A stretch of 57,942 nt of DNA from Gemmatimonadaceae bacterium (GTDB taxonomy: Bacteria > Gemmatimonadota > Gemmatimonadetes > Gemmatimonadales > Gemmatimonadaceae). Under the pieces are notes generated by a model, which was given only the letters and a program-made list of their open reading frames with translations, was not told where the DNA came from and searched no databases. The DNA lies in contig DASTSX010000073.1 of the NCBI GenBank assembly GCA_035760455.1, forward strand, positions 1 through 57,942, in the 5' to 3' direction. The stretch's first letter is position 1; each line of letters begins with the position of its first letter. The position numbers were made by a program, and so were the translations under genes. Positions 7,269 to 51,626 of the stretch are shown here, piece after piece.

Positions 7269-7384
7269 CATCGGCCTCCGAGGAAGTCGAACGGGGCGTG
7301 CCATCCGGTGCGCCCCGTTCGTGCGTCTGGCGCGAGAGGTGCGGAGCTTCGCGCGCCTGCCCGGTACCCCATACCGGCTCACGG

Positions 7385-8713
7385 ATGCAGCTTACGTCAA
7401 TGCAGATACCCATCGAGACCTACGAGCTCGACAACGGATTGTTGGTCGTCCTCTCGGAGGATCATACGGCGCCGCTCGTGGCCGTGAACCTCTGGTACCA
7501 CGTCGGATCGGCGAACGAGCGACCAGGTCGCACGGGGTTCGCTCACCTGTTCGAGCACATGTTGTTTCAGGGCTCGGCGAGCGTCGGCGCGAACGAGCAC
7601 TTCGAGCTCGTGCAGCGCGCGGGCGGCACGCTCAATGGCTCCACGTGGCTCGACCGCACCAACTACTACGAGACGGTTCCGTCGAACCAGCTCGAGCTCG
7701 CCCTCTGGCTCGAGGCGAACCGCATGGGCTACCTGCTACCGGCGATGACGCAGCAGAAGCTCGACACGCAGCGTGACGTCGTGCAGAACGAACGGCGCTG
7801 GTCGATGGACAACCAGCCATACGGCTCCTGGTGGGAGCGGTTGCCGGCACTCTGCTTCCCGCCAAGCCATCCGTTCCACCACTCGCTGATCGGCTCGATG
7901 AGCGATCTCGACGCGGCGAGCCTGGAAGACATCGAGCAGTTCTTCACCACGTACTACACGCCCGACAACGCGGTGCTCTCGATCGCCGGGGACTTCGACC
8001 GCGACGAGGCCAAGCGGCTCGTCGAGCGCCACTTCGGCCCGATCCCGCGCGGCAAGGGGAAGCCTCCGCTGCCGGACATGACACTGCCGCTCTCGCTAGG
8101 CGGTCCACTGCGTGAGGTGGTGCCGGACGACGTCGTGCTGCCGCGCCTGTTCCTCGCGTTCCGATCCCCGGTCTTCGGGAGCGAGGAGTACTACGCGGCG
8201 AGCGTGTGCGGGGCGATCCTCGGCCTCAAGAAGGGAAGCCGCCTGCATCGGCGGCTTGTCCGGGAGAGACAGCTCGCCGCCGAGGCGCAGGCGTTCACGT
8301 ACGATCTCACGAAAGGAAGCGACCTGCTGGTGCTCGATGTCACGGCCCGTCCGGAAACGTCGTCCGAGGAGCTGGAGCGCGCGGTGCACGAGGAGGTCGA
8401 CCGCTTGCGCGACGATGGAGTCACGGCGGAGGAGGTGGCACGCGCCGTGACGCTGGTCGAGACCGAGCTGATCGTCGCGCTGCAGTCGGCGGGCGATCGG
8501 GCCGACAAGCTCTCTCTGTTCGCGACGTACTTCGGTGATGCGTCGCTCGTGAACGTGCAGGGCGCGCGCTACCGTGCGGTCACGGCCGAGCGTGTCAATG
8601 CGTTCGCGCGCGCGCGGCTCGGCGCGGACAATCGCGCGAGCCTGCTGTACGTCCCACGCGAGACAGTGAATGCGTCGACGTCGCGGGAGCTCGCTGAGGC
8701 GGGCGCACGATGA
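7385..8713 (+). CDS. M16 family zinc peptidase, catalytic-type subunit, no signal peptide
   Basis: ATG 7385 (alternative ATG 7400). ETYELDNGLLVVLSEDHTAPLVAVNLWYHVGSANE and the HLFEHMLF (HxxEH) motif are present. No hydrophobic N-terminus is visible. Confidence 0.85.
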   Translation: MQLTSMQIPIETYELDNGLLVVLSEDHTAPLVAVNLWYHVGSANERPGRTGFAHLFEHMLFQGSASVGANEHFELVQRAGGTLNGSTWLDRTNYYETVPSNQLELALWLEANRMGYLLPAMTQQKLDTQRDVVQNERRWSMDNQPYGSWWERLPALCFPPSHPFHHSLIGSMSDLDAASLEDIEQFFTTYYTPDNAVLSIAGDFDRDEAKRLVERHFGPIPRGKGKPPLPDMTLPLSLGGPLREVVPDDVVLPRLFLAFRSPVFGSEEYYAASVCGAILGLKKGSRLHRRLVRERQLAAEAQAFTYDLTKGSDLLVLDVTARPETSSEELERAVHEEVDRLRDDGVTAEEVARAVTLVETELIVALQSAGDRADKLSLFATYFGDASLVNVQGARYRAVTAERVNAFARARLGADNRASLLYVPRETVNASTSRELAEAGAR

Positions 8714-10104
8714 CCGAGACGGCCAAGCGTGAGAACGTACCGGCGCCGCGGCCCAGCCCCACCGCGCCGCGCACCTATCGATTCCCGCACTTCGAGCGGA
8801 TGACGCTGCCGAACGGCCTGCGGCTCGTCGTCGCTCCGGTCTCCAAGCTTCCGCTCGTATCGGTCACGGCCGTCGTCGATGCCGGCGCATCCACCGAGGG
8901 TGAAGGGCAGAACGGCGTTGCCGCCCTCACCGCGCAGCTGCTCCTCGAAGGGGCCGCCGGACTGGACGGCGCGGCGCTCACCGAGCGATTCGAGCGAATC
9001 GGCACCTCGGCGGACGCACACGCGGACTGGGATGCGGCGACGGTCTCGCTCACGGTGCTGGGGGAACGCCTTCCCGAGGCGCTCAGCCTCGTGCGCGACC
9101 TTCTCCGGGCTCCCGAGTTCCCCGAGCGCGAGGTGGCACGACTGAAGGACGAGCGGCTAGCCGAGCTGCTGCAGCTTCGCGCCGAGCCGCGAGCGCTGGC
9201 GGACGAGCACTTCTCCCGCGCCGTGTACGCGCCCTCCGCGCGGTACGCGGCGCCGGCTGGCGGCGACGCGGCAAGCGTTCGGACGCTGACCGGCGAGCTG
9301 GTGCGGCGCTTCTATGCTCAGCGCTATCGGCCGGCGACGACGACGCTCGTGTTCGCCGGCGACGTGAGCGTGGAGCGTGCAGCCGGGCTCGTGATCGAAC
9401 TGTTCGATGACTGGCGCGGCGAGCCGATGTCTCCGAACCCGCGTGCCGTCGACGCCTCCCCACCCACGCGGCTCGCGCGTGTCGTCGCCAAGACCGATGC
9501 GCCGCAGTCGGAGGTGCGAGTCGGTCACGTCGGACTTCCGCGCCGACACCCAGACTATTTCGACGCAACGGTCATGAACGCCGTGCTGGGCGGTCTGTTC
9601 TCGTCGCGCATCAACTTGAATCTGCGGGAAGCGCACGGCTACACGTACGGTGCATTCTCCGCCTTCGAGTGGCGACGGGGCGCAGGTCCATTCACGATTC
9701 AGACCGCCGTGAAGAGCGACGTGACGGGCGCCGCGGTGCGCGAGATCCTGCACGAGATCGAGCGCATGCGCAGCGAGGAGATCGGCACGGACGAGCTGAC
9801 TCTGGCGACGAGCTATCTCGACGGCGTATTTCCGATCCGCTACGAGACCACGGCGGCGATCGCTACGGCGCTCTCGAACCTCGTGATCCACGAACTTCCC
9901 GAGCACTTCTACGACGAGTATCGCATGCGAGTTCGCAGCGTCACGACGGAGGGCGTGCTGCGTGCGGCGCAGCAGCATCTGCACCCCGACCAGCTGCGCA
10001 TCGTCGTGGTGGGCGACCCCGCCGTGGTCGCGCGGCCGCTGGCCGAGATCCACGGCGCGCCCGTGGAAGTCGTGACTCCGGAAGGTGCCGAGGTGGCGGC
10101 GTGA
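8710..10104 (+). CDS. M16 family peptidase, non-catalytic partner subunit
   Basis: ATG 8710 overlaps the upstream TGA (ATGA). It shows M16 fold similarity (LPNGLRLVVAPVSKLPLVS, REAHGYTYGA) with no HxxEH and no signal peptide. Confidence 0.8.
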   Translation: MTETAKRENVPAPRPSPTAPRTYRFPHFERMTLPNGLRLVVAPVSKLPLVSVTAVVDAGASTEGEGQNGVAALTAQLLLEGAAGLDGAALTERFERIGTSADAHADWDAATVSLTVLGERLPEALSLVRDLLRAPEFPEREVARLKDERLAELLQLRAEPRALADEHFSRAVYAPSARYAAPAGGDAASVRTLTGELVRRFYAQRYRPATTTLVFAGDVSVERAAGLVIELFDDWRGEPMSPNPRAVDASPPTRLARVVAKTDAPQSEVRVGHVGLPRRHPDYFDATVMNAVLGGLFSSRINLNLREAHGYTYGAFSAFEWRRGAGPFTIQTAVKSDVTGAAVREILHEIERMRSEEIGTDELTLATSYLDGVFPIRYETTAAIATALSNLVIHELPEHFYDEYRMRVRSVTTEGVLRAAQQHLHPDQLRIVVVGDPAVVARPLAEIHGAPVEVVTPEGAEVAA

Positions 10105-17344: not shown

Positions 17345-17818
17345 ATGGCGAACTTCGTGCGCTGGCGCACACGGCTTCCATGGCTTGCGCTGCCGGCGGT
17401 GCTCGGGTGTATGGACCGGGACACGCCCAAGAAGGTGGCGCAGGTCTTCCAGGCGGGCCGTGCTACTCCTGACGAGAAGCCGAGGATGGTGAACGACGAG
17501 CTGCCCTTTCACTATCCGCCGGCGCTCTTCGCGCGGAGGGTACAAGGCAACGTCACACTGCGGCTCTTCGTCGACCACGTGGGTCAGGTGACGCCGGACT
17601 CGACGCGGATCGAGGAGTCGAGCGGCTACGCCGGCCTGGACTCGGCCGCAGTGCAGGGCTCGCAGGATCTGCGGTTCACGCCGGCGAAGCTGCGTGGCGA
17701 GCCGCTTGGCGTCTCGATCCTCTTCCCGGTCTATTTCCGTCATCCCGACGCGCACGCATTGCCCGGCGACACCATCCTGCGACGGATGACGCCCGCCGCC
17801 ACTCCGAAGGAACGATGA
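17345..17818 (+). CDS. TonB C-terminal-domain protein (short)
   Basis: ATG 17345. It has a hydrophobic N-terminus. LPFHYPPALFARRVQGNVTLRLFVDHVGQV...SSGYAGLDSAAVQGSQDLRFTPA matches the TonB_C fold pattern. No Pro-rich spacer is present. Confidence 0.65.
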   Translation: MANFVRWRTRLPWLALPAVLGCMDRDTPKKVAQVFQAGRATPDEKPRMVNDELPFHYPPALFARRVQGNVTLRLFVDHVGQVTPDSTRIEESSGYAGLDSAAVQGSQDLRFTPAKLRGEPLGVSILFPVYFRHPDAHALPGDTILRRMTPAATPKER

Positions 17819-19251
17819 GCCTGTCCACGACGTCGGCGACACCAGCCGGTACGCACATGCCTGTGCGCAACACGAAGCCGTACGAGAGCGTCCTCGAGAC
17901 GATCGGGTGGACGCCACTCATCCGCCTGACGCGCGTCACGCGGGGTGTCCGTACTCCCGTCTACGGCAAGGCCGATTTCTTCAACCCGGGTGGCTCGGTG
18001 AAGGATCGGATCGGCTTGCCGATCATCGAGCAGGCGGAGCGCGAAGGCCGGCTCCGGCCAGGGGGGACGATCGTCGAGGGCACGAGTGGCAACACGGGGG
18101 TCGGACTCGCGATCGCGGCGGCGCTCAAGGGCTACAAGTGCATCTTCACGATGCCGGACAAGATGTCGCAGGAAAAAGTGCGGCTGCTCAAGGCATTCGG
18201 CGCGGAGGTGATCATCACGCCGACGGCCGTGGCGGCGGATCATCCGGACAACTACGTGATGATGGCCAAGCGCATCGCGGCCGAGACGCCGAACGCGATC
18301 CTGGCCGACCAGTTCTACAACCAGACGAATCCCGACGCGCACTATGCGACCACGGGTCCCGAGCTGTGGGAGCAGACGGAAGGGCGCATCACGCATTTCG
18401 TCGCCGCCGCAGGGACGGGCGGGACGATCACTGGCGTGGGCCGGTACCTCAAGGAGCGCAATCCGAGCATCAAGGTCATCGCGGGCGACCCGCAGGGCTC
18501 CATCCTGGCCGAGCTGTGGCGCAGCAAGGGCACGCACCGGCCGGACGGCGCGCCGTACAAGGTCGAAGGAATCGGGCAGGACAAGCTGCCCGGCACCCTC
18601 GACCTGGCGCTCGTGGACGACTATCGCACGGTGAGCGATCGCGACGCGTTCGCGATGGCGCGCCGGCTCACGCGCGAGGAGGGGTTGTTCGTCGGCGGGT
18701 CAGCGGGACTCATCACGCACGTCGCGCTGCAGGTGGCACGCGAGATCAACGACCCCGACGCTCTCGTCGTGACGTTCCTCTGTGACACCGGCGAGCGCTA
18801 TCTCTCGAAGGTGTTCAACGACGAATGGATGCGGGAGAATCAGCTCCTCGAGCCCGATCGCGTCACGCTCGGCGATCTGCTGGACCATAAGGGAGACGCG
18901 GCGCCCATATCGCTCGTGAGCGCCGCGCCGGGACAGCTCGTGCGACAGGCGCTTGGGCTGATGCGACTGCACGACGTCTCGCAGCTCCCGGTGTTGGAGA
19001 GCGGGGAATGCGTGGGCAGCGTGACGGAGTACGCCCTCACCCAACGGGGACTCGAGAGCTCCCGGTTCCTCGACGCCGTGGTCGGCGAGGTGATGGACGA
19101 AGCGTTTCCGGTGGTGGATGCCGCGCAGCACGTGGAGTCGGTCCAAAAGCTGCTCTCGAAGGCGACCCCTGCCGTCCTCGTACGCCGTGCCGGGACGATC
19201 GAAGGGATCGTGACGCGGAGCGACATGCTCGCGTATTTGATGTCGAGATGA
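17815..19251 (+). CDS. Cystathionine beta-synthase-type PLP enzyme with C-terminal CBS-domain pair
   Basis: ATG 17815 overlaps the upstream TGA. It has the fold-type II PLP motif GGSVKDRIG and the glycine loop GTSGNTG. The C-terminal roughly 130 aa look like a tandem CBS pair. Confidence 0.85.
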   Translation: MSLSTTSATPAGTHMPVRNTKPYESVLETIGWTPLIRLTRVTRGVRTPVYGKADFFNPGGSVKDRIGLPIIEQAEREGRLRPGGTIVEGTSGNTGVGLAIAAALKGYKCIFTMPDKMSQEKVRLLKAFGAEVIITPTAVAADHPDNYVMMAKRIAAETPNAILADQFYNQTNPDAHYATTGPELWEQTEGRITHFVAAAGTGGTITGVGRYLKERNPSIKVIAGDPQGSILAELWRSKGTHRPDGAPYKVEGIGQDKLPGTLDLALVDDYRTVSDRDAFAMARRLTREEGLFVGGSAGLITHVALQVAREINDPDALVVTFLCDTGERYLSKVFNDEWMRENQLLEPDRVTLGDLLDHKGDAAPISLVSAAPGQLVRQALGLMRLHDVSQLPVLESGECVGSVTEYALTQRGLESSRFLDAVVGEVMDEAFPVVDAAQHVESVQKLLSKATPAVLVRRAGTIEGIVTRSDMLAYLMSR

Positions 19252-26286: not shown

Positions 26287-26301
26287 CCGTTTCGGCCGGG
26301 T

Positions 26302-26345
26302 GGTCCCACGTCGGGTCCCACGTCGGGTCCCACGTCGGGTCCCAC
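26302..26345. repeat. 12-bp perfect tandem repeat, 3.7 copies (GGTCCCACGTCG)
   Basis: The unit ggtcccacgtcg occurs at 26302, 26314 and 26326, followed by a partial ggtcccac. The location is intergenic. Confidence 0.9.
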
Positions 26346-26379: not shown

Positions 26380-26408
26380 TTGACGGATTCCCGGGCCCGG
26401 CATACACT
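26380..26408 (+). promoter_or_regulatory. Candidate sigma-70-type promoter (TTGACG-17 nt-TACACT)
   Basis: -35 TTGACG at 26380-26385, a 17-nt spacer, and -10 TACACT at 26403-26408. It faces the sulfurtransferase operon about 440 nt downstream. Confidence 0.4.
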
Positions 26409-26482
26409 CAGAAGACAATCGAAACTCGTGGTGATTTGCCGCCTCTTGCCGCCACGTTAAACAAAGAGCTAAAAAGCGACTC

Positions 26483-26512
26483 GCCTGGCGGCGCTGCACG
26501 CCCGGCTTTTTT
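26483..26512 (+). terminator. Intrinsic-terminator-like hairpin plus T6 (leader terminator 1, or end of a roughly 95-nt sRNA)
   Basis: gcctggcg (26483-26490) pairs with cgcccggc (26499-26506), with 7 of 8 pairs and an 8-nt loop. TTTTTT follows at 26507-26512. An A5 run lies upstream. Confidence 0.5.
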
Positions 26513-26768
26513 GTTATCCACCATTTCCACTCGCGCTCGCATCTCCGATGCTCGGTGCCTCACCCTCCAGCACGACCCGCTGCCGCGCCCGCATGGGTAC
26601 GCGCGCGGGCGTACCCGGCGGGAAGCGAATCGGGGGGCTAGCCACCGGATGCATGCGCATGTGCATGTGCATCGGCCGGATCCAGGGCTGTCGTCCTGGA
26701 ACGGCGGCGCGGCCGGGCAGCGAGCAGCGGGACTGACCACAGACCACTCGCAGACCCACGGGACCACC

Positions 26769-26798
26769 CGGCCGCTCAGTTCGAGGCGGCCGTTTTTT
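26769..26798 (+). terminator. Intrinsic-terminator-like hairpin plus T6 (leader terminator 2, candidate attenuator)
   Basis: cggccgc (26769-26775) pairs with gcggccg (26786-26792). TTTTTT follows at 26793-26798. It lies 58 nt upstream of the sulfurtransferase ATG. Confidence 0.55.
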
Positions 26799-26855: not shown

Positions 26856-27740
26856 ATGAGCACGACCACCGCACCCAACTCCCCGACCGCCGCCGAGAAG
26901 GGCTACGTGAAGCCCGATGTGCTGGTCACCACCGAATGGGTGGCGCAGCACCTGAACGACCCGAAGGTGCGCATCCTCGAGAGCAACGAAGACGTGCTGC
27001 TCTACGACCTCGGGCACATCCCGGGGGCGCAGAAGATCGATTGGCACCAGGACCTGAACGATCCGGTCGTCCGCGACTACGTGTCGAAGGAGCAGTTCCA
27101 GGCGCTGTTGCGCCGGCTCGGCATCGACGACTCGACGACGGTGGTGTTCTACGGCGACAAGAACAACTGGTGGGCCGCGTACGCGTTCTGGGTGTTCCAG
27201 CTGTTCGGCTTCACGAATGCGAAGATCATCGATGGCGGGCGCGCGAAGTGGGAGTCCGAGGGCCGGGAGCTCTCGACCGACGTGCCGACGTACGCCGCGA
27301 CGCAGTACGTGGCCAAGGAGCGCGACGACTCGAAGATCCGCGCCTTCAAGGACGATGCGCTCGCGCACAGCACGGCGAAGAAGCCGCTGATCGACGTACG
27401 CTCGCCCGACGAGTTCAGCGGCAAGAAGACGCACATGCCGGAGTACCCGCAGGAGGGCGTGCTGCGCGGCGGACACATCCCGGGGGCGAAGAGCGTTCCG
27501 TGGGCGCGTGCGGCGAATCCCGACGGCACGTTCAAGACGGCCGACGAGCTGCGCGCGATCTATGAAGGTGAGGCGGGGCTGAAGAAGGGCGACGACGTGG
27601 TGGCCTACTGCCGCATCGGCGAGCGGTCGAGCCACACGTGGTTCGTGCTCACTTACCTGCTCGGCTACGACAAGGTGCGCAACTACGACGGCAGCTGGAC
27701 GGAGTGGGGCAACTCGGTCCGGCTCCCGGTCGAGAAGTAG
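26856..27740 (+). CDS. Tandem-rhodanese thiosulfate/3-mercaptopyruvate sulfurtransferase
   Basis: 294 aa from ATG 26856. It has two rhodanese modules and the active-site loop YCRIGERSS. The track ORF from 26436 is over-extended across the leader. Confidence 0.85.
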
Positions 27741-27821
27741 GCCGGTGATGCCGCTCCGGTCCTCGGGTCTGCGCATCGCTGTGCGCTGTCCGCGCGCCAC
27801 CTCCCTCCGGGGGTGGCGCGC

Positions 27822-28781
27822 ATGAGACGGCGTGCGGTGGTGCGCGTGCCGGGATCGACGGCGAACCTCGGCGCGGGCTTCGACAGCGTCGGCGCCGCGG
27901 TGGACCGGTGCCTGACGGCGTCGGTGGTGGCGCAGCCGGAGCCCGACGCGACGACGGTGATCCAGCGAGGCGGCGCGCTCGCGCGCCTCGACGTGGCGGC
28001 GGAGCAGGACTGGCTGCTGGTGGGACTGCGCGCGGCGTGCAAGGCGGCGGGGCGCGAAGCCCCGCGCGCGCTGCGCGTTCGCGTGAGCTCGAACATTCCG
28101 GTCGCCCGCGGGCTCGGCTCGTCGGCCGCCGCGGTCGTGGCCGGTGCCGTGGCGGCCACGGGGATCTGCGGCTTCTCGCTCACCGACGCGCAGCTGCTCG
28201 AGGTGTGCGCCGCGGTCGAGGGGCACGCGGACAACGTCGCGGCGGCGATTCACGGTGGATTCGTGTTGGTGGTTCCAGGCACCCCGGCACGCGTCGTTCC
28301 GCTCACGGTGGCGCGGGGGCTCACGCTGGTGTTCGCGGTCCCGGATTTCGAGGTGACGACGCGCGATGCCCGCGCCGTGCTGCCGCGCGAGTTGCCGCAC
28401 CGCACGGCCGCCCGCGCCGCGGCGCTGGGTGCGGCGCTCGTCCACGGGCTCGCGACCGGCGACGGGGACACGCTCCGCGCCGCGCTCGACGACGTGCTGC
28501 ACGTGCCGTATCGGCGCTCGCTGATGCTGGGCTACGACGAGGTGTGCGGTGCGGCCGTCGCCGCCGGGGCGCTCGGCGCGACGCTGAGCGGTTCGGGCTC
28601 GACGCTCTGCGCCGTCGTGCCGGAGCGTCAGGCTCCCGCGGTCGCCGAGGCGATGCGCACGGCCTGGCGGCAGCACGACGTGCAGGCGGAAGTCTTCGCG
28701 AACCCGGCGCACGTGGAAGGGCGCAGCCTCGTGGTGCATCTCGACTGCGAGGACGCGCCGGCAACGGCCGCGGCGAGCTGA
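27822..28781 (+). CDS. thrB: Homoserine kinase (GHMP family)
   Basis: VRVPGSTANLGAGFDS and the GHMP motif PVARGLGSSAAAVVAG are present. ATG 27822 was chosen; an in-frame GTG at 27813 is also possible. Confidence 0.85.
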   Translation: MRRRAVVRVPGSTANLGAGFDSVGAAVDRCLTASVVAQPEPDATTVIQRGGALARLDVAAEQDWLLVGLRAACKAAGREAPRALRVRVSSNIPVARGLGSSAAAVVAGAVAATGICGFSLTDAQLLEVCAAVEGHADNVAAAIHGGFVLVVPGTPARVVPLTVARGLTLVFAVPDFEVTTRDARAVLPRELPHRTAARAAALGAALVHGLATGDGDTLRAALDDVLHVPYRRSLMLGYDEVCGAAVAAGALGATLSGSGSTLCAVVPERQAPAVAEAMRTAWRQHDVQAEVFANPAHVEGRSLVVHLDCEDAPATAAAS

Positions 28782-28844
28782 CGCGATGACGCACACGGCT
28801 CCCGCGCTCGACAGTGTTTTCTCATTCTCCTTCGGAGATTCGTC

Positions 28845-29117
28845 ATGGCAGTAACACTCTTTCTTCCCACCGTGCTGGCCAAGCTGGCCGACGGACGCGC
28901 GATCGAATCGAACGGCGACACGGTGGGCGCGGTGGTGGCCGACGTGGCGGCGCGCTATCCTGGCCTCGCCCCGCGACTGCGCGACGAGACGGGACAGCCG
29001 TATCCGTTCGTGACGTTCTACCTGAACGACGAGGACATCCGCTTCAACGGCGGCTTCGACGCGAAGGTGAGCGACGGCGACGAGCTGACCGTCGTGCCGG
29101 CGATCGCCGGGGGCTGA
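28845..29117 (+). CDS. MoaD/ThiS/CysO-family ubiquitin-like sulfur-carrier protein
   Basis: 90 aa ending ...DELTVVPAIAGG (C-terminal Gly-Gly). GGAG lies 8 nt upstream of the ATG. Confidence 0.8.
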   Translation: MAVTLFLPTVLAKLADGRAIESNGDTVGAVVADVAARYPGLAPRLRDETGQPYPFVTFYLNDEDIRFNGGFDAKVSDGDELTVVPAIAGG

Positions 29118-29122
29118 GCATC

Positions 29123-30298
29123 ATGGCCACCGCCACCGCACCACTGGCGACGCAGCTCGAGGAGCTCTCGTCAGACGAGATTCTCCGGTACAGCCGGCAC
29201 CTCATTCTGCCGGAGGTCGCGCTCGAGGGCCAGCAGCGGCTCAAGGCGTCGCGCGTGCTGCTCATCGGCGCGGGGGGCCTCGGGTCGCCGCTCGCCCTGT
29301 ACCTCGCCGCGGCGGGGGTGGGGACGATCGGCCTCGTGGACTTCGACGTCGTGGACGTCACGAACCTGCAGCGGCAGATCGTGCACGGCACGAAGGACGT
29401 GGGTCGCCCGAAGCTGGAGTCGGCGCGCGACCGGCTGAAGGACATGAACCCGCACGTACACGTCGAGGGGTACGAGACGCGACTCACGAGCGAGAACGCG
29501 CTGGAGATCGTGCGCGACTACGACATCGTGATCGACGGGACCGACAACTTCGCCACGCGCTATCTCACGAACGATGCGTGCGTGATCCTCGGCAAGCCGA
29601 ACGTGTACGGCAGCATCTACCGGTTCGAGGGGCAGTCGTCGGTGTTCGCGACCGAGAACGGGCCGTGCTACCGCTGCCTGTACCCGGAGCCGCCGCCGCC
29701 CGGCCTCGTGCCGAGCTGCGCGGAAGGAGGAGTGCTCGGCGTACTGCCCGGGCTCGTCGGCACGATCCAGGCGACCGAGGGGATCAAGCTGCTGCTCGGC
29801 ATCGGCGAGCCGCTGATCGGGCGGCTGCTGCTGATCGACGCACTGTCGATGCAGTTCCGAACGATGCGGCTGCGCAAGAACCCGGAGTGTCCGGCGTGCG
29901 GGACGCGCGAGATCCGCGAGCTGATCGACTACGACCAGTTCTGCGGCATCGGCGGCGATCCGCTCCAGGACCCGCACGGCATCCCGGAGATCACCCCGTC
30001 GGAGCTGGCGACGAAGCAGCAGCGGCGCGATGACTTCGACCTGATCGACGTGCGCGAGCCGCACGAGTGGGCGATCGCGCGCATCCCCGGGGCGCGGCTC
30101 GTGCCGCTCGGCGCGTTCACGGAGTCGCTCTCCTCGTTCGACAGCGCTCGCGACATCGTCGTGACGTGCAAGATGGGCGGCCGGAGCGCGAAGGCGGTGC
30201 GGCAGCTCCAGGCGGCGGGGTTCAAGCGCGTGTGGAACCTCGCCGGCGGCATCCTCCGATGGAGCGACGACGTCGATCCGACCGTTCCCAAGTACTGA
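29123..30298 (+). CDS. MoeZ/MoeB-type E1-like adenylyltransferase fused to a C-terminal rhodanese domain
   Basis: ATG 29123. RYSRHLILPEVALEGQQRLKASRVLLIGAGGLGSP is the ThiF/MoeB nucleotide loop. The zinc CxxC pairs are CYRC and CPAC. The rhodanese active-site loop is CKMGGRS. Confidence 0.9.
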   Translation: MATATAPLATQLEELSSDEILRYSRHLILPEVALEGQQRLKASRVLLIGAGGLGSPLALYLAAAGVGTIGLVDFDVVDVTNLQRQIVHGTKDVGRPKLESARDRLKDMNPHVHVEGYETRLTSENALEIVRDYDIVIDGTDNFATRYLTNDACVILGKPNVYGSIYRFEGQSSVFATENGPCYRCLYPEPPPPGLVPSCAEGGVLGVLPGLVGTIQATEGIKLLLGIGEPLIGRLLLIDALSMQFRTMRLRKNPECPACGTREIRELIDYDQFCGIGGDPLQDPHGIPEITPSELATKQQRRDDFDLIDVREPHEWAIARIPGARLVPLGAFTESLSSFDSARDIVVTCKMGGRSAKAVRQLQAAGFKRVWNLAGGILRWSDDVDPTVPKY

Positions 30299-30302
30299 AA
30301 AG

Positions 30303-30358
30303 CGTGAGTTGGTGAGTTGGTGAGTTGGTGAGTTGGATAGCTGGTTAGTTGGAGTTCG
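30303..30358 (+). repeat. GGTGAGTT-type octamer array (4 near-perfect plus 3 degenerate units)
   Basis: The array reads cgtgagtt ggtgagtt ggtgagtt ggtgagtt ggatagct ggttagtt ggagttcg. It starts 5 nt after the moeZ-like stop and ends 36 nt before the ThrC-like ATG. Confidence 0.9.
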
Positions 30359-30393
30359 CCGTTTTCTGGTTTCCTCGACGCTAGTCTGACGCA

Positions 30394-31680
30394 ATGACTT
30401 CGATTCTTCCCGACGCCGGCCCGGCGTCGCTCGCTCCGACAACGGCCAGCCTGCGGCCCTATCCGCAGCGCTGCAAGCTGTGTGGCACCGAGAACGAATC
30501 GGCGCCCGTGGCGATCTGCGAGAACTGCCTCGGTCCCCTCGAGCCGCTCTACCCGGCGACGCGCCGCATCCCCGACCGTGCGACGATCGCCGCGCGGCCG
30601 CAGTCGATGTGGCGGTATCGCGAGTTCCTGCCGTTCGAGGGGGAACCAGTCGCGTCGCTCGACACGGGCTTCACGCCCCTGATCGACGCGCCGCGGCTCG
30701 CGGACAAGCTGGGCATCGCGCGCGTGTGGGTGAAGAACGACGCGGTGTCGCATCCCTCGCTGTCGTTCAAGGACCGCGTCGTGTCGACGGCGATCAACGC
30801 GGCGCTCGCGTTCGGGCTCGACACAGTGGGGTGCGCATCGACGGGGAATCTCGCCAACGCGGTGGCGGCACACGCCGCGCGCGCGGGGCTGGCGTCGTGG
30901 ATCTTCATCCCCGAGGACCTCGAGATCGGCAAGGTGATCGGCACGGCGGTATACGGGCCGAACCTCGTCCGCATCAAAGGGCACTACGACGACGTGAACC
31001 GGCTGTGCGCGCAGCTCGCCGACCGGTTCGGCTGGGGGATCGTCAACGTGAACCTGCGCGGCTACTACGGCGAGGGCTCGAAGACGATGGCGTACGAGAT
31101 CGCCGAGCAGCTGGGGTGGCGACTGCCGAGCGCGGTGGTGGCGCCGATGGCGGGCGGGTCGCTCGTGACGAAGCTCGGAAAGGGGTTCAAGGAGTTCATC
31201 GACGCAGGGCTCGTGAGCGGCGCGACGCCACGCGTCTACGGCACCCAGGCTTCGGGGTGCGCGCCCATCGTTCGGCTCTGGGAGCGCGGCGACTCCACGC
31301 TCGTGCCGGAGATCCCGAACACGATCGCGCGCTCGATCGCGATCGGGAACCCGGCGGACGGCGCGTTCGCGGCGAAGGTGATGCGCGAGTCGGGGGGCCG
31401 AGGGCAACACGTGAGCGACGAGGCACTCGTCGCCGGCATCCGGCTGCTGGCGGAGACGACGGGCGTGTTCACCGAGACCGCCGGCGGCGTCACCGTTGCA
31501 GGAGCGCTGGCGCTCGCCGAGGCCGGGCACTTCCGTTCCGACGACGAGATTGTATTGTGTATTACGGGCAACGGATTGAAGACGACCGAAGCGGTGAGTG
31601 ACGTTCTGCCCGCTGCGCCGGTCATTGCTCCGAAGGTTCGCGACGTGGCCGCGCTGGTCGCCGAGCGGACGGGTTCCTGA
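30394..31680 (+). CDS. Threonine synthase-family PLP enzyme with N-terminal CxxC...CxxC zinc-ribbon extension
   Basis: 428 aa. The ribbon is CKLCGTENESAPVAICENC. The PLP-lysine motif is HPSLSFKDRV. The glycine-rich loop is APMAGGSL. Overall it shows ThrC-like similarity. Confidence 0.85.
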   Translation: MTSILPDAGPASLAPTTASLRPYPQRCKLCGTENESAPVAICENCLGPLEPLYPATRRIPDRATIAARPQSMWRYREFLPFEGEPVASLDTGFTPLIDAPRLADKLGIARVWVKNDAVSHPSLSFKDRVVSTAINAALAFGLDTVGCASTGNLANAVAAHAARAGLASWIFIPEDLEIGKVIGTAVYGPNLVRIKGHYDDVNRLCAQLADRFGWGIVNVNLRGYYGEGSKTMAYEIAEQLGWRLPSAVVAPMAGGSLVTKLGKGFKEFIDAGLVSGATPRVYGTQASGCAPIVRLWERGDSTLVPEIPNTIARSIAIGNPADGAFAAKVMRESGGRGQHVSDEALVAGIRLLAETTGVFTETAGGVTVAGALALAEAGHFRSDDEIVLCITGNGLKTTEAVSDVLPAAPVIAPKVRDVAALVAERTGS

Positions 31681-31862
31681 GATTCTCACGTTCGACGCAC
31701 GCCAGAGATCGCGATGTCGCTCGTCCTCGCCCTGAACACGATGTGTTGTCGCTGCCGGTGCTGTGGCCGCTCCCTGGAGAGCGCTCACGGTGGCCGCGCT
31801 GTGCTCACGAACCCGTGTCCATGTTGTTGACGACGGCCGACTGACCACACCGCACGCGCACC

Positions 31863-31896
31863 GCGGGCCCGCTCTCCACGACGAGAGCGGGCCCGC
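31863..31896 (+). terminator. Strong terminator-like hairpin
   Basis: Perfect 14-bp stem: gcgggcccgctctc (31863-31876) pairs with gagagcgggcccgc (31883-31896), with a 6-nt loop. A T-rich tail, ttcgcatttctctgctcttc, follows. It lies 52 nt upstream of the porin ATG. Confidence 0.6.
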
Positions 31897-31948
31897 TTCG
31901 CATTTCTCTGCTCTTCGTCGACGCAATCCACTCGAGGAACCCAGCCTG

Positions 31949-33385
31949 ATGTTCGCTTCACGCATCACCACGATCACTCTCGCGCTCGGCGCGGTCGCTC
32001 TCGCCGGCGGGGCTCCCGCAGCGGCGCAGACATCGGCGGCGACGACCGCGACGCACGAGTCGGCCGCGCGGACCGTGCCGGCATCGACCGTCACGCAGCA
32101 GTCGGCCACGACGAGCGAGGCCGAGGCCCGGATCAAGCAGCTCGAGGATCGAATCGCCACGCTCGAGAAGGCGGAGGCGAAGAACAAGATCACCGCAGCC
32201 GCGGCACCAACGGTCTCGGCGTCGCGCGATGGACTCCAGATCCGCTCGGCGGACAACGCGTTCAGCTTCCGGCTCCGCGGCTACGTGCAGTCCGACGCGC
32301 GGTTCTTCGGCGCGAAGGGCCCGGTGGCGCCCGGGTCGAGCACGTTCCTGCTGCGCCGCGTGCGGCCGGTCTTCGAAGCGACGGCGTACAAGTACTTCGG
32401 CCTGCGGCTGATGCCCGACTTCGGCGGCGGTCAGGTCGTGCTGTACGACGCGTACGCCGAGGCGAAGCCGAACGCCGCGCTCAACCTGCGCGTCGGCAAG
32501 TTCAAGCCGCCGATCGGGCTCGAGCGCCTGCAGTCGGCGACGGACGTGCGATTCATCGAGCGCGGACTGCCGACGGCCCTCGTCCCGAACCGCGACGTAG
32601 GCGTGCAGCTTTCCGGCGACCTCGCGAAGGCGCGGGTGCAGTACCAGATCGGTGCGTTCGACGGCGCGCCGGATGCCGCGAACCTCGACGGCGACGCGGC
32701 GACCGGGAAGGACGTCGTGGGCCGCGTCTTCCTCCGGCCGTTCGCGACGAACACGTCGGGGCCGGACCTCGGGATCGGCATCGCCGCGAGCTCGGGGACG
32801 GAGCAGGGGACGGCCGCCGTGCCGGCACTCGGCAGCTATCGGACGACGGGCCAGCTCGCGCTGTTCCGCTACCGCGCCGACGGCACGACGGCGAACACCG
32901 TGCTCGCGCAGGGGCGACGCACGCGCGTGTCGCCGCAGGGATACCTGTACGTGGGGCCCGTAGGCGTGCTCGCCGAGTACGTGCGCTCGACGCACGAGGT
33001 CCGGCGCGCGGCCAACGTCGCCGAGCTGACGAACCAGGCGTGGCAGGTCTCTGGCGGCTGGGTGCTGACCGGTGAGCGCGAGTCGTACACGAGCATCACG
33101 CCGGACCATCCGCTCGACGGATCGAAGGCCGGGGGGCTGGGCGCGCTCGAGCTCGTCGCGCGATACGGCGTGCTGACGACGGATGCGGCGGCATTTCCGA
33201 CGTTCGCCGATCCGGCGACGCAGCCACGGCGCGCGCGCGCCGCGGGGGTGGGGCTCAACTGGCGGCTGACGCGCGGGCTGCTGTTCGCGGCCAACTACGA
33301 GCGCACCCAGCTCGACGCCCCGGAGACGGGCACGGTGCGCCAGACGGAGCACGCGGTGCTCACGCGATTCCAGTTGGGGTTCTGA
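31949..33385 (+). CDS. Phosphate/anion-selective porin O/P family outer-membrane protein
   Basis: ATG 31949. The signal peptide ends AAAQTS. A short coiled-coil reads EARIKQLEDRIATLEKAEAKNK. A beta-barrel with OprO/OprP-like segments (RGYVQSDARFF, FKPPIGLERLQS) follows. The C-terminal residue is Phe. Confidence 0.8.
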   Translation: MFASRITTITLALGAVALAGGAPAAAQTSAATTATHESAARTVPASTVTQQSATTSEAEARIKQLEDRIATLEKAEAKNKITAAAAPTVSASRDGLQIRSADNAFSFRLRGYVQSDARFFGAKGPVAPGSSTFLLRRVRPVFEATAYKYFGLRLMPDFGGGQVVLYDAYAEAKPNAALNLRVGKFKPPIGLERLQSATDVRFIERGLPTALVPNRDVGVQLSGDLAKARVQYQIGAFDGAPDAANLDGDAATGKDVVGRVFLRPFATNTSGPDLGIGIAASSGTEQGTAAVPALGSYRTTGQLALFRYRADGTTANTVLAQGRRTRVSPQGYLYVGPVGVLAEYVRSTHEVRRAANVAELTNQAWQVSGGWVLTGERESYTSITPDHPLDGSKAGGLGALELVARYGVLTTDAAAFPTFADPATQPRRARAAGVGLNWRLTRGLLFAANYERTQLDAPETGTVRQTEHAVLTRFQLGF

Positions 33386-33505
33386 CATGAATGCTTCGCG
33401 CGCAGGTCGAACGACGGAACACGGATTCGAGCGGCGATGTCGCGGGAACGGGGGGATGAACTGCTGTTGAAAGAGACGTGGCGAGTGAGCGTTGGCGAGT
33501 TCGAT

Positions 33506-33593
33506 TGAGTGCAGATCCTTCGACTCCCTGCGCTCGCTCGGGATGACCCTGAGTGCAGATCCCTCGACTCACTGCGCTCGCTCGGGATGACAG
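33506..33593. repeat. 44-bp tandem duplication (2 copies, about 40/44 identical), REP-like
   Basis: Unit 1 (33506-33549) is tgagtgcagatccttcgactccctgcgctcgctcgggatgaccc. Unit 2 (33550-33593) is tgagtgcagatccctcgactcactgcgctcgctcgggatgacag. Each unit can form an 8-bp stem, gagtgcag/ctgcgctc. Confidence 0.85.
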
Positions 33594-33672
33594 CCGTTGC
33601 CTCGCTACGAGCCGACCGACGACCGATCACCGACAAATCACCGCGCTTCGCGCGACCTACACGAATCGAATC

Positions 33673-34698
33673 ATGCAGACCCTGAAAACCATCGCTCGAC
33701 TGACGCTCGCCCTCGCGCTCGCTGCCCCCGCCGGCGGGGCGGCCGCCGCGCAGGAGAAGGTCACGTTGCTGAACGTGTCGTACGATCCGACGCGCGAACT
33801 GTACAAGGACATCAACGCCGCGTTCGCGCGCGAGTGGAAGCGCCGCACCGGGCAGGACGTGGAGATCAAGCAGTCGCACGGCGGCTCGGGCGCGCAGGCG
33901 CGCGCGGTGATCGACGGCCTGGAGGCCGACGTCGTGACGCTCGCGCTGGCCTACGACATCGACGAGATCGCGCAGCGCGGGAAGACGCTCCCCGCCGACT
34001 GGCAAAAGAAGCTGCCGCACAACAGCACGCCGTTCGCGTCCACTGTCGTCTTCGTCGTTCGTAAGGGAAATCCGAAGGCGATCAAGGACTGGAACGACCT
34101 GATCCGCGCCGACGTGCAGGTGATCACGGCGAACCCGAAGACCTCGGGGGGCGCGCGGTGGAACTACCTCGCCGCGTGGGGCTACGCCCTCCAGAAGAGC
34201 AAGGGGAGCGAGCCGGCCGCGCGCGACTTCATCGCGCGGCTCTACCAGAACGTGCCGGTGCTCGACGCGGGGGCGCGCGGGTCGACGACGACGTTCGTCG
34301 AGCGCGGGATCGGCGACGTGCTCATCGCCTGGGAGAACGAGGCGTTGCTCTCGGTGAAGCAGCTCGGGCCGGACAAGTTCGACATCGTCATCCCATCGGT
34401 GAGCGTCCTCGCCGAGCCGCCCGTCGCCGTGAACGAGAGCGTCGCGGCGAAGCACGGCACGACGAAGGTCGCGCGGGCCTACCTCGAGTTCCTCTACACC
34501 GAGGCCGCCCAGGCGCTGGGCGCCAAGCACTATTACCGACCGACGGGGCCGCGGTCGCTCGCCAAGTTCGGCGGGCAGTTCCCGAAGGTCCAGCAGTTCA
34601 CGATCGGCAAGGTGTTCGGCGGCTGGGCGAAGGCGCAGCAGACACACTTCGCGGACGGCGGCATCTTCGATCAGGTGTACTCGGTGGCGAAGCGGTGA
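33673..34698 (+). CDS. sbp: Sulfate/thiosulfate ABC transporter periplasmic binding protein
   Basis: ATG 33673 with a signal peptide. [25 protein letters not shown]...[28 protein letters not shown] is the characteristic Sbp/CysP pattern. Confidence 0.9.
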
Positions 34699-35552
34699 GC
34701 GTGCTTCCGGCGCGTCGAGTGGCGCCCGCCCTGCCGCGCGTGCGGTCCGTGTTGCCCGGGGTGCGGCTGACCCTGGGCTTCACGCTCGCCTACCTGCTGG
34801 TGCTCGTCGTCATCCCGCTCTCGACGCTGTTCGTGCGCTCGGCACGGTTGGGGTGGACCGGGTTCCTCGAAGCGGCGACATCGGACCGCGCGATCGCCGC
34901 GTACCGGCTGAGTGTCGGTGCGTCGGTAACGGCGGCGCTCGTGAACGGAGTATTCGGGCTGCTCGTGGCGTGGGTGCTGACGCGGTACCGGTTTCCGGGG
35001 AAGTCGATCGCCGACGCGCTGGTGGACCTGCCGTTCGCGCTGCCGACGGCAGTGGCGGGGGTCGCGCTGACGACGCTCTACGCGCAGAACGGGTTGATCG
35101 GTGCGCTGCTTGCGCCGCACGGGATCAAGGTCGCGTTCACGCCGCTCGGCATCACGGTGGCGCTGACGTTCATCGGCCTGCCGTTCGTCGTGCGCAGCGT
35201 GCAGCCGGTGCTGGAGACGCTGCCGAAGGAGATCGAGGAAGCCGCGGCGACGCTCGGCGCGGACCGGTGGCAGACGTTCCGGCGCGTGATCCTGCCGGCG
35301 CTGACGCCGGCGCTCGTCGCCGGCGTGTCGCTCTCGTTCGCGCGGGCGATCGGCGAATACGGCTCGGTGGTGTTCATCTCGGGGAACATGCCCGGGTTCA
35401 CCGAGATCGCGCCGCTGCTGATCATGAGCAAGCTGGAGCAGTACGACTACGGCGGTGCGACGGCGATCGCCGTGGTGATGCTGCTGCTGTCGGCCGTGAT
35501 CCTGATCGGCGCGGGGCTGCTGCAGCGCCGCGCGGCGAAGCGCGCGGCCTAG
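34695..35552 (+). CDS. cysT: Sulfate ABC transporter permease CysT
   Basis: GTG 34695 overlaps the sbp TGA. It is a multi-TM permease carrying the EAA-type loop [21 protein letters not shown]. Confidence 0.9.
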
Positions 35553-35564
35553 GAGACCACATCG

Positions 35565-36494
35565 ATGTCGACGACCATCGCACCGCCAGCGCCGAGACAC
35601 GGCATTCCCCCGGGACCCCGCACGAAGCCTCGTGCCGCCGCCGCGGCGACGGGGGAGAGCGCGGGGGCACGGTGGGTCCTGATCGCCGTCGCGCTGGCGT
35701 ACCTGTTCCTGTTCCTGGGGCTACCGCTGTTCGTGGTGTTCCAGGAGGCCTTCAAGAAGGGTGTCACCGCGTATTTCACCGCGCTCAAAGAACCGGACCT
35801 GCTGTACGCGCTCAAGCTCACGCTCATCGTGGCCGGGATCGCCGTGCCGCTCAACGTGCTGTTCGGGCTCTCGGCGGCGTGGGCGATCACGAAGGGGAAG
35901 GTGCGCGGGCACGCGCTGCTCGTCGCGCTGGCAGACCTGCCGCTCGCCGTCTCACCCGTGATCGCGGGGCTGACATTCATGCTGCTGTTCGGCATGCAGG
36001 GCTGGTTCGGGCCGTGGCTCAAGGCGCACGACATCCAGATCGCCTTCACGGTCACGGCGGTGGTGCTGGCGACGATCTTCGTGACGCTGCCGTTCGTGGC
36101 GCGCGAGCTGATCCCGCTGATGGAAGAGCAGGGGGTGACGGAGGAGGAGGCGGCCGTCACGCTGGGCGCGTCAGGGTGGCAGATCTTCCGCCGCGTGACG
36201 CTCCCGAACATCCGCTGGGGGCTGCTCTACGGCGTGGTGCTGTGCAACGCGCGCGCGATGGGCGAGTTCGGCGCGGTGTCGGTGGTGTCGGGGCGCATCC
36301 GGGGCCAGACGACGACGCTGCCGCTGCACATCGAGATCCTCTACAACGAGTACGACTTCACCGCGGCGTTCGCCGCGTCGTCGCTGCTGGCGATGCTCGC
36401 CGTGGTGACGCTCGCCGCGAAACACCTGCTCGAGCGCAGCCACCACGCAGCGCGGGCGCGGATCATCCAGGAGCAACAGGAGCGTCAGCCATGA
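35565..36494 (+). CDS. cysW: Sulfate ABC transporter permease CysW
   Basis: 309 aa. It is a multi-TM permease with the loop [21 protein letters not shown]. It sits between cysT and cysA. Confidence 0.9.
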
Positions 36495-37252
36495 GCGTCG
36501 AGCTCGATCGGGTCTCGAAGCAGTTCGGGGAGTTCACGGCACTGGATCAAGTGAGTTTCGCCGTGGGGGAAGGGGAGCTGGTGGCACTCGTCGGGCCATC
36601 GGGCTCGGGGAAGTCCACACTGCTGCGCGTCGTCGCCGGGCTCGAGCGCCAGGACGCGGGAACCGTGAGGATCCACGGTGAGGACGCGGCCCCACTGGGC
36701 CCGGGCGACCGGCGCATCGGCTTCGTGTTCCAGCACTACGCACTGTTCCGGCACATGACCGTGTTCGAGAACGTGGCGTTCGGCCTGCGCGTGCGCCCGC
36801 GGCGCGAGCGACCGAGCGGGAGCGACATCAAAGCGGCGGTGAAGGATCTGCTCGCGCTGGTGGAGCTCGATACGCTCGGCGCGCGGTATCCATCGGAGCT
36901 TTCCGGTGGACAACAGCAGCGGGTCGCCCTGGCCAGGGCGCTCGCCGTGCAGCCGCGCGTGCTCCTGCTCGACGAGCCGTTCGGCGCGCTGGACGCCCGC
37001 GTGCGCAAGCAGCTCCGGCAGTGGCTGCGACGGCTGCACGACGAGGTGCAGGTGACGACGATCCTCGTGACGCACGACAGCGAGGAGGCGTGCGAGGTGG
37101 CAGACCGCGTGGCGGTGATGCACGACGCGCGGATCGCGCAGATCGGGACGGCGGCGGAGCTGGCGCGCGGCTCGGCCAATCCGTTCCTCGAGTCGTTTCT
37201 GGCCGAGAACACGCGGAAGAGCGCCGCGGTGAAGAAGATCAACTATCACTAG
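36491..37252 (+). CDS. cysA: Sulfate ABC transporter ATP-binding protein (short form, no obvious C-terminal regulatory domain)
   Basis: ATG 36491 overlaps the cysW TGA. It has Walker [10 protein letters not shown], the signature LSGGQQQR and Walker B LLLDEP. At 253 aa it is shorter than the roughly 360 aa I recall for classical CysA. Confidence 0.85.
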
Positions 37253-51365: not shown

Positions 51366-51626
51366 TCACGTCGTTCCGGACGGAAGGATTCGCGCGGAGA
51401 GCTCGCGGGCCCGCAGCAGCAGGGGGCTCTTGGCCACGGCGGCGCCGCCCTCGCGCTCCTCGATCGCGGCGACGACGTCCGCGGTGACGCGTCGCAGCGT
51501 CACGTAGCTCGTGACCAGCCGGACCACTTGCGGGTGGTCCTGCGCTCGGGCCAGCACCAGCATCTCGCGGAGCTCGCGATCGGTGAGCGGGACGTCGTCG
51601 GCGCGCAGCGGTGCTCGATCGGTCAT
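51366..51626 (-). CDS. Small hypothetical protein (86 aa), translationally coupled to the MerR/B12 regulator
   Basis: ATG 51626 overlaps the regulator stop (ATGA). The sequence begins MTDRAPLRADDVPLTDRELREMLVLARAQDHPQVV. I recognise no family. Confidence 0.45.
   Translation of the reverse strand: MTDRAPLRADDVPLTDRELREMLVLARAQDHPQVVRLVTSYVTLRRVTADVVAAIEEREGGAAVAKSPLLLRARELSARILPSGTT

Follow-up and report, generated by a model that had tools for sequence, protein, structure and literature searches.

In the CysO/CysM/MoeZ/Mec system of Mycobacterium tuberculosis, which makes cysteine, a pyridoxal-phosphate (PLP) enzyme swaps the phosphate of a phospho-amino acid for the sulfur of a carrier protein. 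For Wolinella succinogenes, a thiocarboxylate-dependent synthesis of homocysteine by HcyS, HcyF, HcyD and MetY was reportedly worked out by Krishnamoorthy and Begley in 2011. For Streptomyces albulus, a thiocarboxylate route from O-phosphohomoserine to homocysteine, the MetM/MetO pathway, is reported to have been described by Hasebe et al. (2024, Appl Environ Microbiol 90:e01247-24); the GapMind preprint which cites that work lists as its components the carrier MetO, Mec for maturation of the carrier, MoeZ and MetM (bioRxiv 10.1101/2024.10.14.618325), and an S-adenosylmethionine (SAM) riboswitch is reported upstream of S. albulus metM (PMC12172450). Here, we analyzed a stretch of 57,942 nucleotides from a Gemmatimonadaceae bacterium (assembly GCA_035760455.1, contig DASTSX010000073.1, positions 1 to 57,942; hereafter “the window”), in which five co-oriented genes, among them a carrier gene and a gene resembling threonine synthase (ThrC), follow a SAM-II riboswitch. 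The window operon is a well-supported further case of the known MetM/MetO pathway and not a new system: as judged from sequence comparison, it is very probable that this one SAM-repressed operon would turn homoserine into homocysteine via a protein thiocarboxylate. A first-pass annotation of the window, made from the sequence alone, had proposed that a carrier thiocarboxylate reacts with O-phosphohomoserine to give homocysteine, and this logic appears sound in view of the SAM riboswitches, the adjacency of the carrier gene, the separate clade formed by the enzyme and its 53% identity to a Microcystis homolog. The same annotation had pointed to a pair of ThrC-like enzyme and sulfur carrier for homocysteine synthesis in Streptomyces; the precedent is real (S. 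albulus MetM/MetO), and the idea was right and already known.

The window shares with the S. albulus system a ThrC-homologous PLP enzyme, a ThiS/CysO-type carrier (encoded next to the enzyme in the window, and ending in Gly-Gly), a MoeZ-type E1 (here within the operon) and an upstream SAM riboswitch, and both enzymes are routinely misannotated as threonine synthase. The window differs in the presence of thrB, moeZ and a thiosulfate sulfurtransferase gene together in the operon, the order carrier, MoeZ, enzyme, a carrier with a native Gly-Gly end and no Mec nearby, and the phylum Gemmatimonadota; its switch combines SAM-II with a terminator, whereas an ortholog from the actinomycete Nonomuraea gerenzanensis has SAM-I. 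With the mycobacterial system it has in common the carrier family, the rhodanese-domain E1 and a PLP enzyme of fold type II, but this enzyme belongs to the ThrC and not to the CysM/OASS family, would carry out a gamma replacement on O-phosphohomoserine instead of a beta replacement on O-phosphoserine, and would yield homocysteine, with no Mec gene present. The Wolinella system, in which a ubiquitin-like carrier thiocarboxylate likewise delivers the sulfur of homocysteine, is said to depend on O-acetylhomoserine, the fold-type-I enzyme MetY and a JAMM protease, in contrast to the predicted O-phosphohomoserine, the ThrC-type enzyme of fold type II and a carrier that needs no trimming.

The five-gene cluster and its ThrC-like enzyme

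All five genes named in the first-pass annotation are present at the place given there, on the forward strand, with the domains that were claimed for them (Table 1). The gaps between them measure 5–95 nt and no terminator-like sites were found inside the cluster, which fits a single transcription unit. With a G+C content of ~69%, the window stems from a high-G+C bacterium, and the nearest homologs of its proteins come from Gemmatimonadaceae metagenome-assembled genomes (MAGs).

Table 1. Coordinates of the leader elements, the five-gene cluster and other features of the window
Feature	Position	Strand	Basis
Putative sigma-70-like promoter (TTGACG, 17-nt spacer, TACACT)	26380..26408	+	consensus scan
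SAM-II riboswitch aptamer, RF00521 (SAM_alpha)	26418..26494	+	Rfam 43.0 bits, gathering score 36
Terminator 1, likely expression platform	26483..26512	+	hairpin GCCTGGCG...CGCCCGGC, then six T; -14.2 kcal/mol
Second terminator-like hairpin	26769..26798	+	CGGCCGCTC...GGCGGCCG, then six T; 57 nt before first gene
Tandem-rhodanese thiosulfate sulfurtransferase, SseA/CysA type	26856..27740	+	two PF00581 domains, CRIGERS loop
Homoserine kinase ThrB	27813..28781	+	TIGR00191 215.7 bits, cutoff 168
Sulfur-carrier protein, MetO/CysO family, 90 aa	28845..29117	+	PF02597 (ThiS/MoaD family)
MoeZ-type E1	29123..30298	+	PF00899 ThiF (1e-86) and C-terminal PF00581 rhodanese, CKMGGRS loop
MetM-like ThrC-family PLP enzyme	30394..31680	+	PF00291 (PALP) 4.9e-65; TIGR00260 258 bits, cutoff 167
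Porin and sbp-cysT-cysW-cysA block	31763..37252		PF07396 (porin); NCBIfam (Sbp, CysT, CysW, CysA)
Cystathionine beta-synthase-like protein	17815..19251		PALP and CBS domains
Three consecutive M16 (insulinase-family) peptidase genes	5745..10104		
tRNA-Phe, anticodon GAA	37984..38056	+	Rfam 73.6 bits
Regulator resembling the light-sensing CarH type	51623..52663	-	MerR DNA-binding and B12-binding domains

In order to place the ThrC-like enzyme, its family profile was scanned against one genome per species. This returned at least 600 stretches, of which the best 80 loci were kept; altogether, 84 distinct loci were analyzed (numbered with the prefix L), including four metagenome loci and one Nonomuraea locus. 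They represent more than ten phyla, namely Gemmatimonadota, Acidobacteriota, Planctomycetota, Verrucomicrobiota, Nitrospirota, Chloroflexota, Aquificota, Actinomycetota, Methylomirabilota and others. Pairwise identity within the family was at least 42.7% (median 53%), compared to at most 39.3% (median 33%) against canonical ThrC, and by these values the ThrC-like enzyme forms a clade separate from true ThrC. Both paralogs occur together in L005, L027, L030, L034, L049 and the Microcystis proteome. In L005, whose family member is 84% identical to the window enzyme, a complete thrA-thrB-thrC operon lies 1.3 kb upstream of the unit of SAM-II, carrier, MoeZ and enzyme, and its canonical ThrC shares only 33% identity with the window enzyme. 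In four Nitrospirota loci, ThrC-like gene, carrier and canonical ThrC are consecutive. Within the 58-kb window itself, scans of the likely genes found no second ThrC-family member.

The clade is also set apart by its active-site loops. Alignment of 85 family members with six canonical sequences gave diagnostic residues that hold in 85/85 family members versus 6/6 canonical sequences, with the reservation that R222 and Y225 were part of the scan pattern, so that their invariance is circular, the other positions being independent. The fixed differences, in window numbering with the Thermus ThrC residue in brackets, are V129 (G64), L153 (T88), N220 (S155), R222 (N157), Y225 (R160), A253 (G187), G/S254 (N188), G255 (A189), L257 (N191), G364 (S290) and G365 (A291), together with a one-residue insertion after N218 (N154). 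The canonical loops SFKDRG, STGNT, N-S-x-N-P-x-R-x-E-G-Q-K-T and G-N-A-G-N are not matched by the window enzyme, which has SFKDRV, STGNL, N-V-N-L-R-G-Y-Y-G-E-G-S-K-T and A-G-G-S-L instead. In ThrC, the retained phosphate directs water to the beta carbon, and T88, S155 and R160 of the Thermus enzyme are presumably contacts of the substrate or product phosphate. If these contacts are right, the remodelling of the three positions would fit a switch to gamma replacement. What the window enzyme shares with canonical ThrC is the fold, the SFKDR motif with its Schiff-base lysine (K126) and presumably the substrate, whereas the remodelled loops and the linkage to a carrier gene and a SAM riboswitch are found on the window side.

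An AlphaFold model of the window enzyme (mean confidence score pLDDT 89.4) had ThrC as its top solved matches (2ZSJ, 6CGQ, 1UIM, 2D1F), with target-normalised template modelling scores (TM-scores) of ~0.85 and 33–36% identity; no solved structure of the ThrC-like subfamily was among the structure matches. The N-terminal cysteine ribbon (C27xxC30...C42xxC45), which the first-pass annotation had singled out as an extra, is indeed present in the window enzyme, but it is not peculiar to it and was rejected as a MetM-specific mark: the ribbon recurs in canonical ThrC from L005 and L090 and is missing from the Microcystis homolog.

The connection to the described pathway runs through Microcystis. 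The “ThrC” in question is reported to be 51.6% identical to S. albulus MetM and to have a MetO-like neighbour gene (PMC12172450). Using the Microcystis sequence (thrC_1) from the supplement of that article, we found 53% identity to the window enzyme over 374 residues, with all diagnostic residues in common, compared to 35% between the window enzyme and the canonical ThrC of Microcystis. An ortholog from Nonomuraea gerenzanensis shares 47% identity with the window enzyme and lies in the arrangement SAM-I, enzyme, carrier. This locus (L086) is located on the chromosome NZ_LT559118.1 (11.85 Mb), which the plasmid collection lists as a plasmid, with almost no annotation. It came up in a tblastn search of that collection, which gave no Streptomyces match, and the matches listed by a protein search with a Micromonosporaceae homolog were all from Micromonosporaceae.

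Conservation of the carrier, the kinase and the gene order

A CysO-like carrier gene adjoins the ThrC-like gene in 74/84 loci, with a median gap of ~70 bp. The gene adjacency, on whose conservation in relatives the first-pass annotation had staked its proposal, is kept in these loci and goes beyond chance. When the flanking open reading frames were clustered across the loci, the carrier alone emerged as a conserved neighbour, and genes of the MoeZ, CBS/CysK-like and JAMM types turned up only now and then. The commonest order is enzyme followed by carrier, which holds in most other phyla, the actinomycete Nonomuraea included, and in other Gemmatimonadales loci (L008–L012), while the order carrier, MoeZ, enzyme is found in the window and in five loci of the Gemmatimonadaceae type (L001, L004–L007). 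The full five-gene order of the window, whose co-occurrence in relatives had been suggested as a check, was found again in L006 and L088.

The 90-residue carrier of the window ends in AIAGG, and its best solved relative is CysO of M. tuberculosis (3DWG chain C, 1.4e-22). All Gemmatimonadota-type carriers examined end exactly at Gly-Gly, whereas in carriers from other phyla 1–7 residues follow this motif in about 30 of 74 cases and longer tails in 14; such extra residues (1–7) after Gly-Gly, seen in many relatives of the window carrier, are reportedly also a feature of HcyS of Wolinella. Pfam scans of likely genes and a motif search detected no JAMM/Mec protease in the 58-kb window, which extends the earlier remark that none is present in the cluster. 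Since the carrier already ends at Gly-Gly, a Mec-type hydrolase is probably dispensable at this locus.

Several carriers depart from this simple form. In Acidobacteriaceae, carriers encoded just downstream of the ThrC-like gene have a long C-terminal extension with a Cys-rich end (e.g. CCSYCGQEECxC; L017, L021, L042, L044, L048, L052). Others comprise ~175 aa with an extra C-terminal domain (L024, L031, L046, L050, L070), and the carrier of L055 is apparently fused to MoeZ.

The homoserine kinase is linked to the carrier as well. ThrB orthologs lie within the cluster in L006, L007, L010, L088 and L089, and in sister lineages at least six protein clusters (P0500, P0502, P0503, P0513, P0515, P0519) consist of ThrB-carrier fusions of 408–411 aa, with an N-terminal homoserine kinase and a C-terminal MetO-like carrier ending in AIAGG. 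Such fusions tie the kinase functionally to the carrier. One fusion gene (L087, 5177–6403) is preceded by a SAM-II riboswitch and followed directly by another gene, which is cut by the contig end. Overall, those orthologs that are part of the cluster or of a carrier fusion share 51–89% identity with the window ThrB.

The tandem rhodanese occurs at the equivalent position in L006 and L088. Among solved structures it matched the sulfurtransferase 8K55 (1e-126) and mycobacterial SseA and CysA2 (1e-94 to 1e-116), and it is the probable sulfur donor of the pathway. The MoeZ-type E1 scored 522 bits with the MoeZ model NF005902, below its cutoff of 647, and 481 bits with NF006444, above its cutoff of 449.

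Some Gemmatimonadota SAM-II operons add a class I/II aminotransferase and/or a PanB-like gene (ketopantoate hydroxymethyltransferase family) before thrB (L004 4465–6587, L089 5795–8004, L010 ~7140–8000), which are absent from the window. It is a speculative thought that this pair might supply homoserine from pyruvate and methylene-tetrahydrofolate via 4-hydroxy-2-oxobutanoate; among the titles listed by a literature search, none pointed to a natural-pathway precedent for such a route.

The SAM-II leader and SAM riboswitches across relatives

The riboswitch, absent from the first-pass annotation, sits just 3′ of the putative promoter, with 360 nt between it and the first gene. Its sense-strand orientation, its upstream position and its score over the gathering threshold all agree with SAM-II membership; the E-value for the whole window is 2e-6, and the score rises to 75.7 bits with a SAM-II covariance model built in this analysis. 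The -35 region of the promoter is kept in the L005 leader. The hairpin of terminator 1 is G+C-rich and lies directly 3′ of the aptamer. The 3′ strand of the aptamer stem P1, GCCGCCA (26448–26454), can instead pair with TGGCGGC (26486–26492) inside the 5′ arm of this terminator, the two structures being mutually exclusive. As long as the nascent transcript still lacks the 3′ arm, this alternative pairing is its fold of minimum energy. According to this folding model, it is likely the antiterminator. A hairpin with a T-run follows all Gemmatimonadota SAM-II aptamers examined. The simplest reading of the leader is that of a transcriptional OFF switch, presumably operating by termination and antitermination.

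In 60/84 loci, a SAM riboswitch was detected that precedes the ThrC-like gene or its cluster in the same orientation, mostly within a few hundred bases. By class, covariance models built from Rfam hits assigned 14 loci (plus the window) to SAM-II and 46 loci to SAM-I; at the Rfam gathering score, SAM-I or SAM-II was found in 19 of the 37 loci scanned, the Nonomuraea locus among them. Several of the loci in which no riboswitch was detected lack the full upstream sequence. SAM-II homologs precede the same cluster in L001, L004, L005, L008–L011, L013 and L087–L089. Within Gemmatimonadota, six independent loci, the window among them, reach the gathering score, and three further loci (L087–L089) have SAM-II. 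The canonical thrB-thrA-thrC operon L090 from the same phylum gave no match to the SAM-II model, the SAM-I model not having been run there. The genes under SAM riboswitches are typically those for methionine and SAM. The finding of two structurally unrelated SAM sensors on the same gene pair in different phyla is strong evidence for a role in the synthesis of methionine or SAM, and it is independent of protein homology.

In six loci from Acidobacteriota and Methylomirabilota (L018, L020, L064, L072, L073, L075), a diverged SAM-II-like element lies ~160–260 nt upstream of the ThrC-like gene. It does not reach the gathering score of Rfam (in L018 it has 23 bits) but aligns well with the Gemmatimonadota aptamers, with 70–75 bits from a model covering both groups.

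The sequence of the second terminator-like hairpin is kept in L006, L088, L005 and L089, while L010 and L011 have hairpins that resemble it. In an RNAalifold consensus, obtained from only four alignable sequences, its 5′ arm pairs with a conserved upstream GCGGCCGGG. The ~250-nt spacer between the two terminators (26513–26768) is poorly conserved, and a permissive Rfam scan of it gave nothing credible as a known RNA family; a metagenome pattern scan for extra leaders yielded only three loci, all truncated. One could imagine the 360-nt leader as two regulated terminators in series, SAM-II followed by the hairpin at 26769–26798 with GCGGCCGGG as its alternative partner, the spacer being an undescribed sensor. 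We regard this arrangement as unlikely. If it exists, the sensor may be an RNA element or a protein-binding site, which may add a second signal, such as sulfur or homoserine status, to that of SAM.

Further upstream, a 12-nt tandem repeat, GGTCCCACGTCG, is present in ~3.7 copies (~26300–26345), between the operon promoter and a terminator-like hairpin 3′ of a TonB-dependent receptor gene.

The proposed route, its alternatives and its meaning

What the analysis shows directly is the identity of the genes, the family to which the enzyme belongs, the conservation of the linkage and the existence of the riboswitch. The chemical steps are modelled on S. albulus MetM/MetO and M. tuberculosis CysO/MoeZ, and by this analogy the operon would work as follows. 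ThrB would convert homoserine to O-phosphohomoserine. MoeZ would adenylate the C-terminal Gly-Gly of the carrier, and the persulfide on its rhodanese domain would load sulfur to give the carrier thiocarboxylate, the stand-alone tandem rhodanese probably supplying thiosulfate sulfur to this relay. The MetM-type enzyme would then eliminate phosphate from O-phosphohomoserine, and the carrier thiocarboxylate, not water, would add at the gamma carbon. Homocysteine could be released from the carrier either by direct thioester hydrolysis or by an acyl shift followed by a protease. Methionine and then SAM would be produced elsewhere in the genome, and SAM bound to the SAM-II aptamer would lock P1 and favour terminator 1, turning the operon off; without SAM, the antiterminator would form.

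Some observations weigh against this route. The window enzyme still exceeds the cutoff of the NCBI thrC equivalog model TIGR00260, and 10/84 loci have no adjacent carrier gene, two of these ten ending at contig edges. Moreover, the comparison ties the window enzyme to S. albulus MetM via the intermediate Microcystis homolog and not directly. For this homolog, both the formation of threonine from O-phosphohomoserine and the deamination of threonine are reported in vitro, and the authors express doubt about a full MetM function in cells (PMC12172450); family members may keep ThrC-type side activities. A last point concerns the kinase. Since a 56% ortholog serves the canonical thrB-thrA-thrC operon L090, which lacks a SAM-II match, the window ThrB is not established as a dedicated paralog, and it may be the sole homoserine kinase, making SAM control awkward.

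Some of these facts would also suit an ordinary threonine operon with an inserted CysO-MoeZ pair that serves an O-phosphoserine-dependent CysM-type cysteine synthase elsewhere. The TIGR00260 score, the ThrC activity of the Microcystis family member in vitro (PMC12172450), the annotation of all close homologs as threonine synthase and the kinship of the carrier to CysO of the M. tuberculosis cysteine pathway can all be brought forward in its favour. However, the signal predicted from the riboswitches here and at 60/84 loci is SAM and not threonine, the carrier adjoins the ThrC-like enzyme rather than CysM in 74/84 loci, and the enzyme differs from canonical ThrC both in the fixed changes of its active-site loops and in sharing only 33% identity with the canonical ThrC of L005, a close relative carrying both enzymes. 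A threonine operon is, in our view, highly improbable. The third reading, in which carrier and MoeZ work in the synthesis of molybdopterin or thiamin and stand between thrB and the thrC-like gene only by chance, could draw on the matches to the ThiS/MoaD and ThiF/MoeB families, including a pass of the MoeB model NF006444. It has next to no probability given that Pfam scans of likely genes in the window found no moaE, moaA, thiG or thiH, that the carrier is nearest to CysO and not to MoaD or ThiS, that its gene keeps its place beside the ThrC-like gene over more than ten phyla, and that a SAM-II riboswitch lies upstream of the cluster.

It is improbable, too, that the ThrC-like enzyme uses the carrier thiocarboxylate, sulfide or sulfite on another substrate, for instance O-phosphoserine, to form cysteine, cysteate or another product. 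ThrC paralogs with different chemistries exist, the phosphate-binding loops depart from those of ThrC, and the surroundings in general are related to sulfur (sulfate transporter, CBS). With the cysteate synthase model TIGR03844, the enzyme matches weakly over the full length, but its 59 bits are far under the cutoff of 325. SAM riboswitches, as noted, are typical of methionine and SAM genes, and thrB, present in the operon and fused to the carrier in sister lineages, indicates O-phosphohomoserine as the substrate, the compound which the S. albulus enzyme of the same architecture is described to use (bioRxiv 10.1101/2024.10.14.618325, PMC12172450).

Downstream of the cluster, a sulfate-binding protein and CysT, CysW and CysA all score over their NCBIfam cutoffs, which bears out the transporter genes named in the first-pass annotation as part of a sulfur context; the porin ahead of them belongs to the phosphate-selective porin O/P family, while its sulfate specificity is presumed. 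Because this block is absent from the same position of the otherwise syntenic L088 (11836–13255), where a HEM4 gene stands between the enzyme gene and a polyketide-cyclase-like gene, gene content marks it as a variable neighbour and not as a conserved part of the system. The protein previously called cystathionine beta-synthase has the PALP and CBS domains of that name, but its score of 497 bits falls just under the cutoff of 510.

Among the loci without an adjacent carrier gene, a MetM-like member from Aquificaceae was seen twice (L071, 2338–3540; L056, 169–1374), one of the MAGs being labelled Aquifex aeolicus. The canonical ThrC of Aquifex is the solved structure 2ZSJ.

The main value of these findings lies in the correction of annotation, the breadth of the pathway's distribution and its regulation. 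Every close homolog that bears a database name is labelled threonine synthase, and with such labels metabolic reconstructions would miss the homocysteine route. This concerns Gemmatimonadota, Acidobacteriota, Planctomycetota, Verrucomicrobiota, Nitrospirota, Chloroflexota and others, for which false calls of methionine auxotrophy are possible. MetM-type enzymes could be told from true ThrC and re-annotated by an upstream SAM-I or SAM-II riboswitch, an adjacent CysO-like carrier and the diagnostic residues V129, L153, A253, G255, L257 and G364–G365 (window numbering). With the kinase, sulfurtransferase, carrier, E1 and synthase behind one SAM-II switch, the window operon would also be a handy unit for reconstitution. 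The occurrence of at least 600 stretches in species-representative genomes suggests that the route is a major one and not a peculiarity of Streptomyces.

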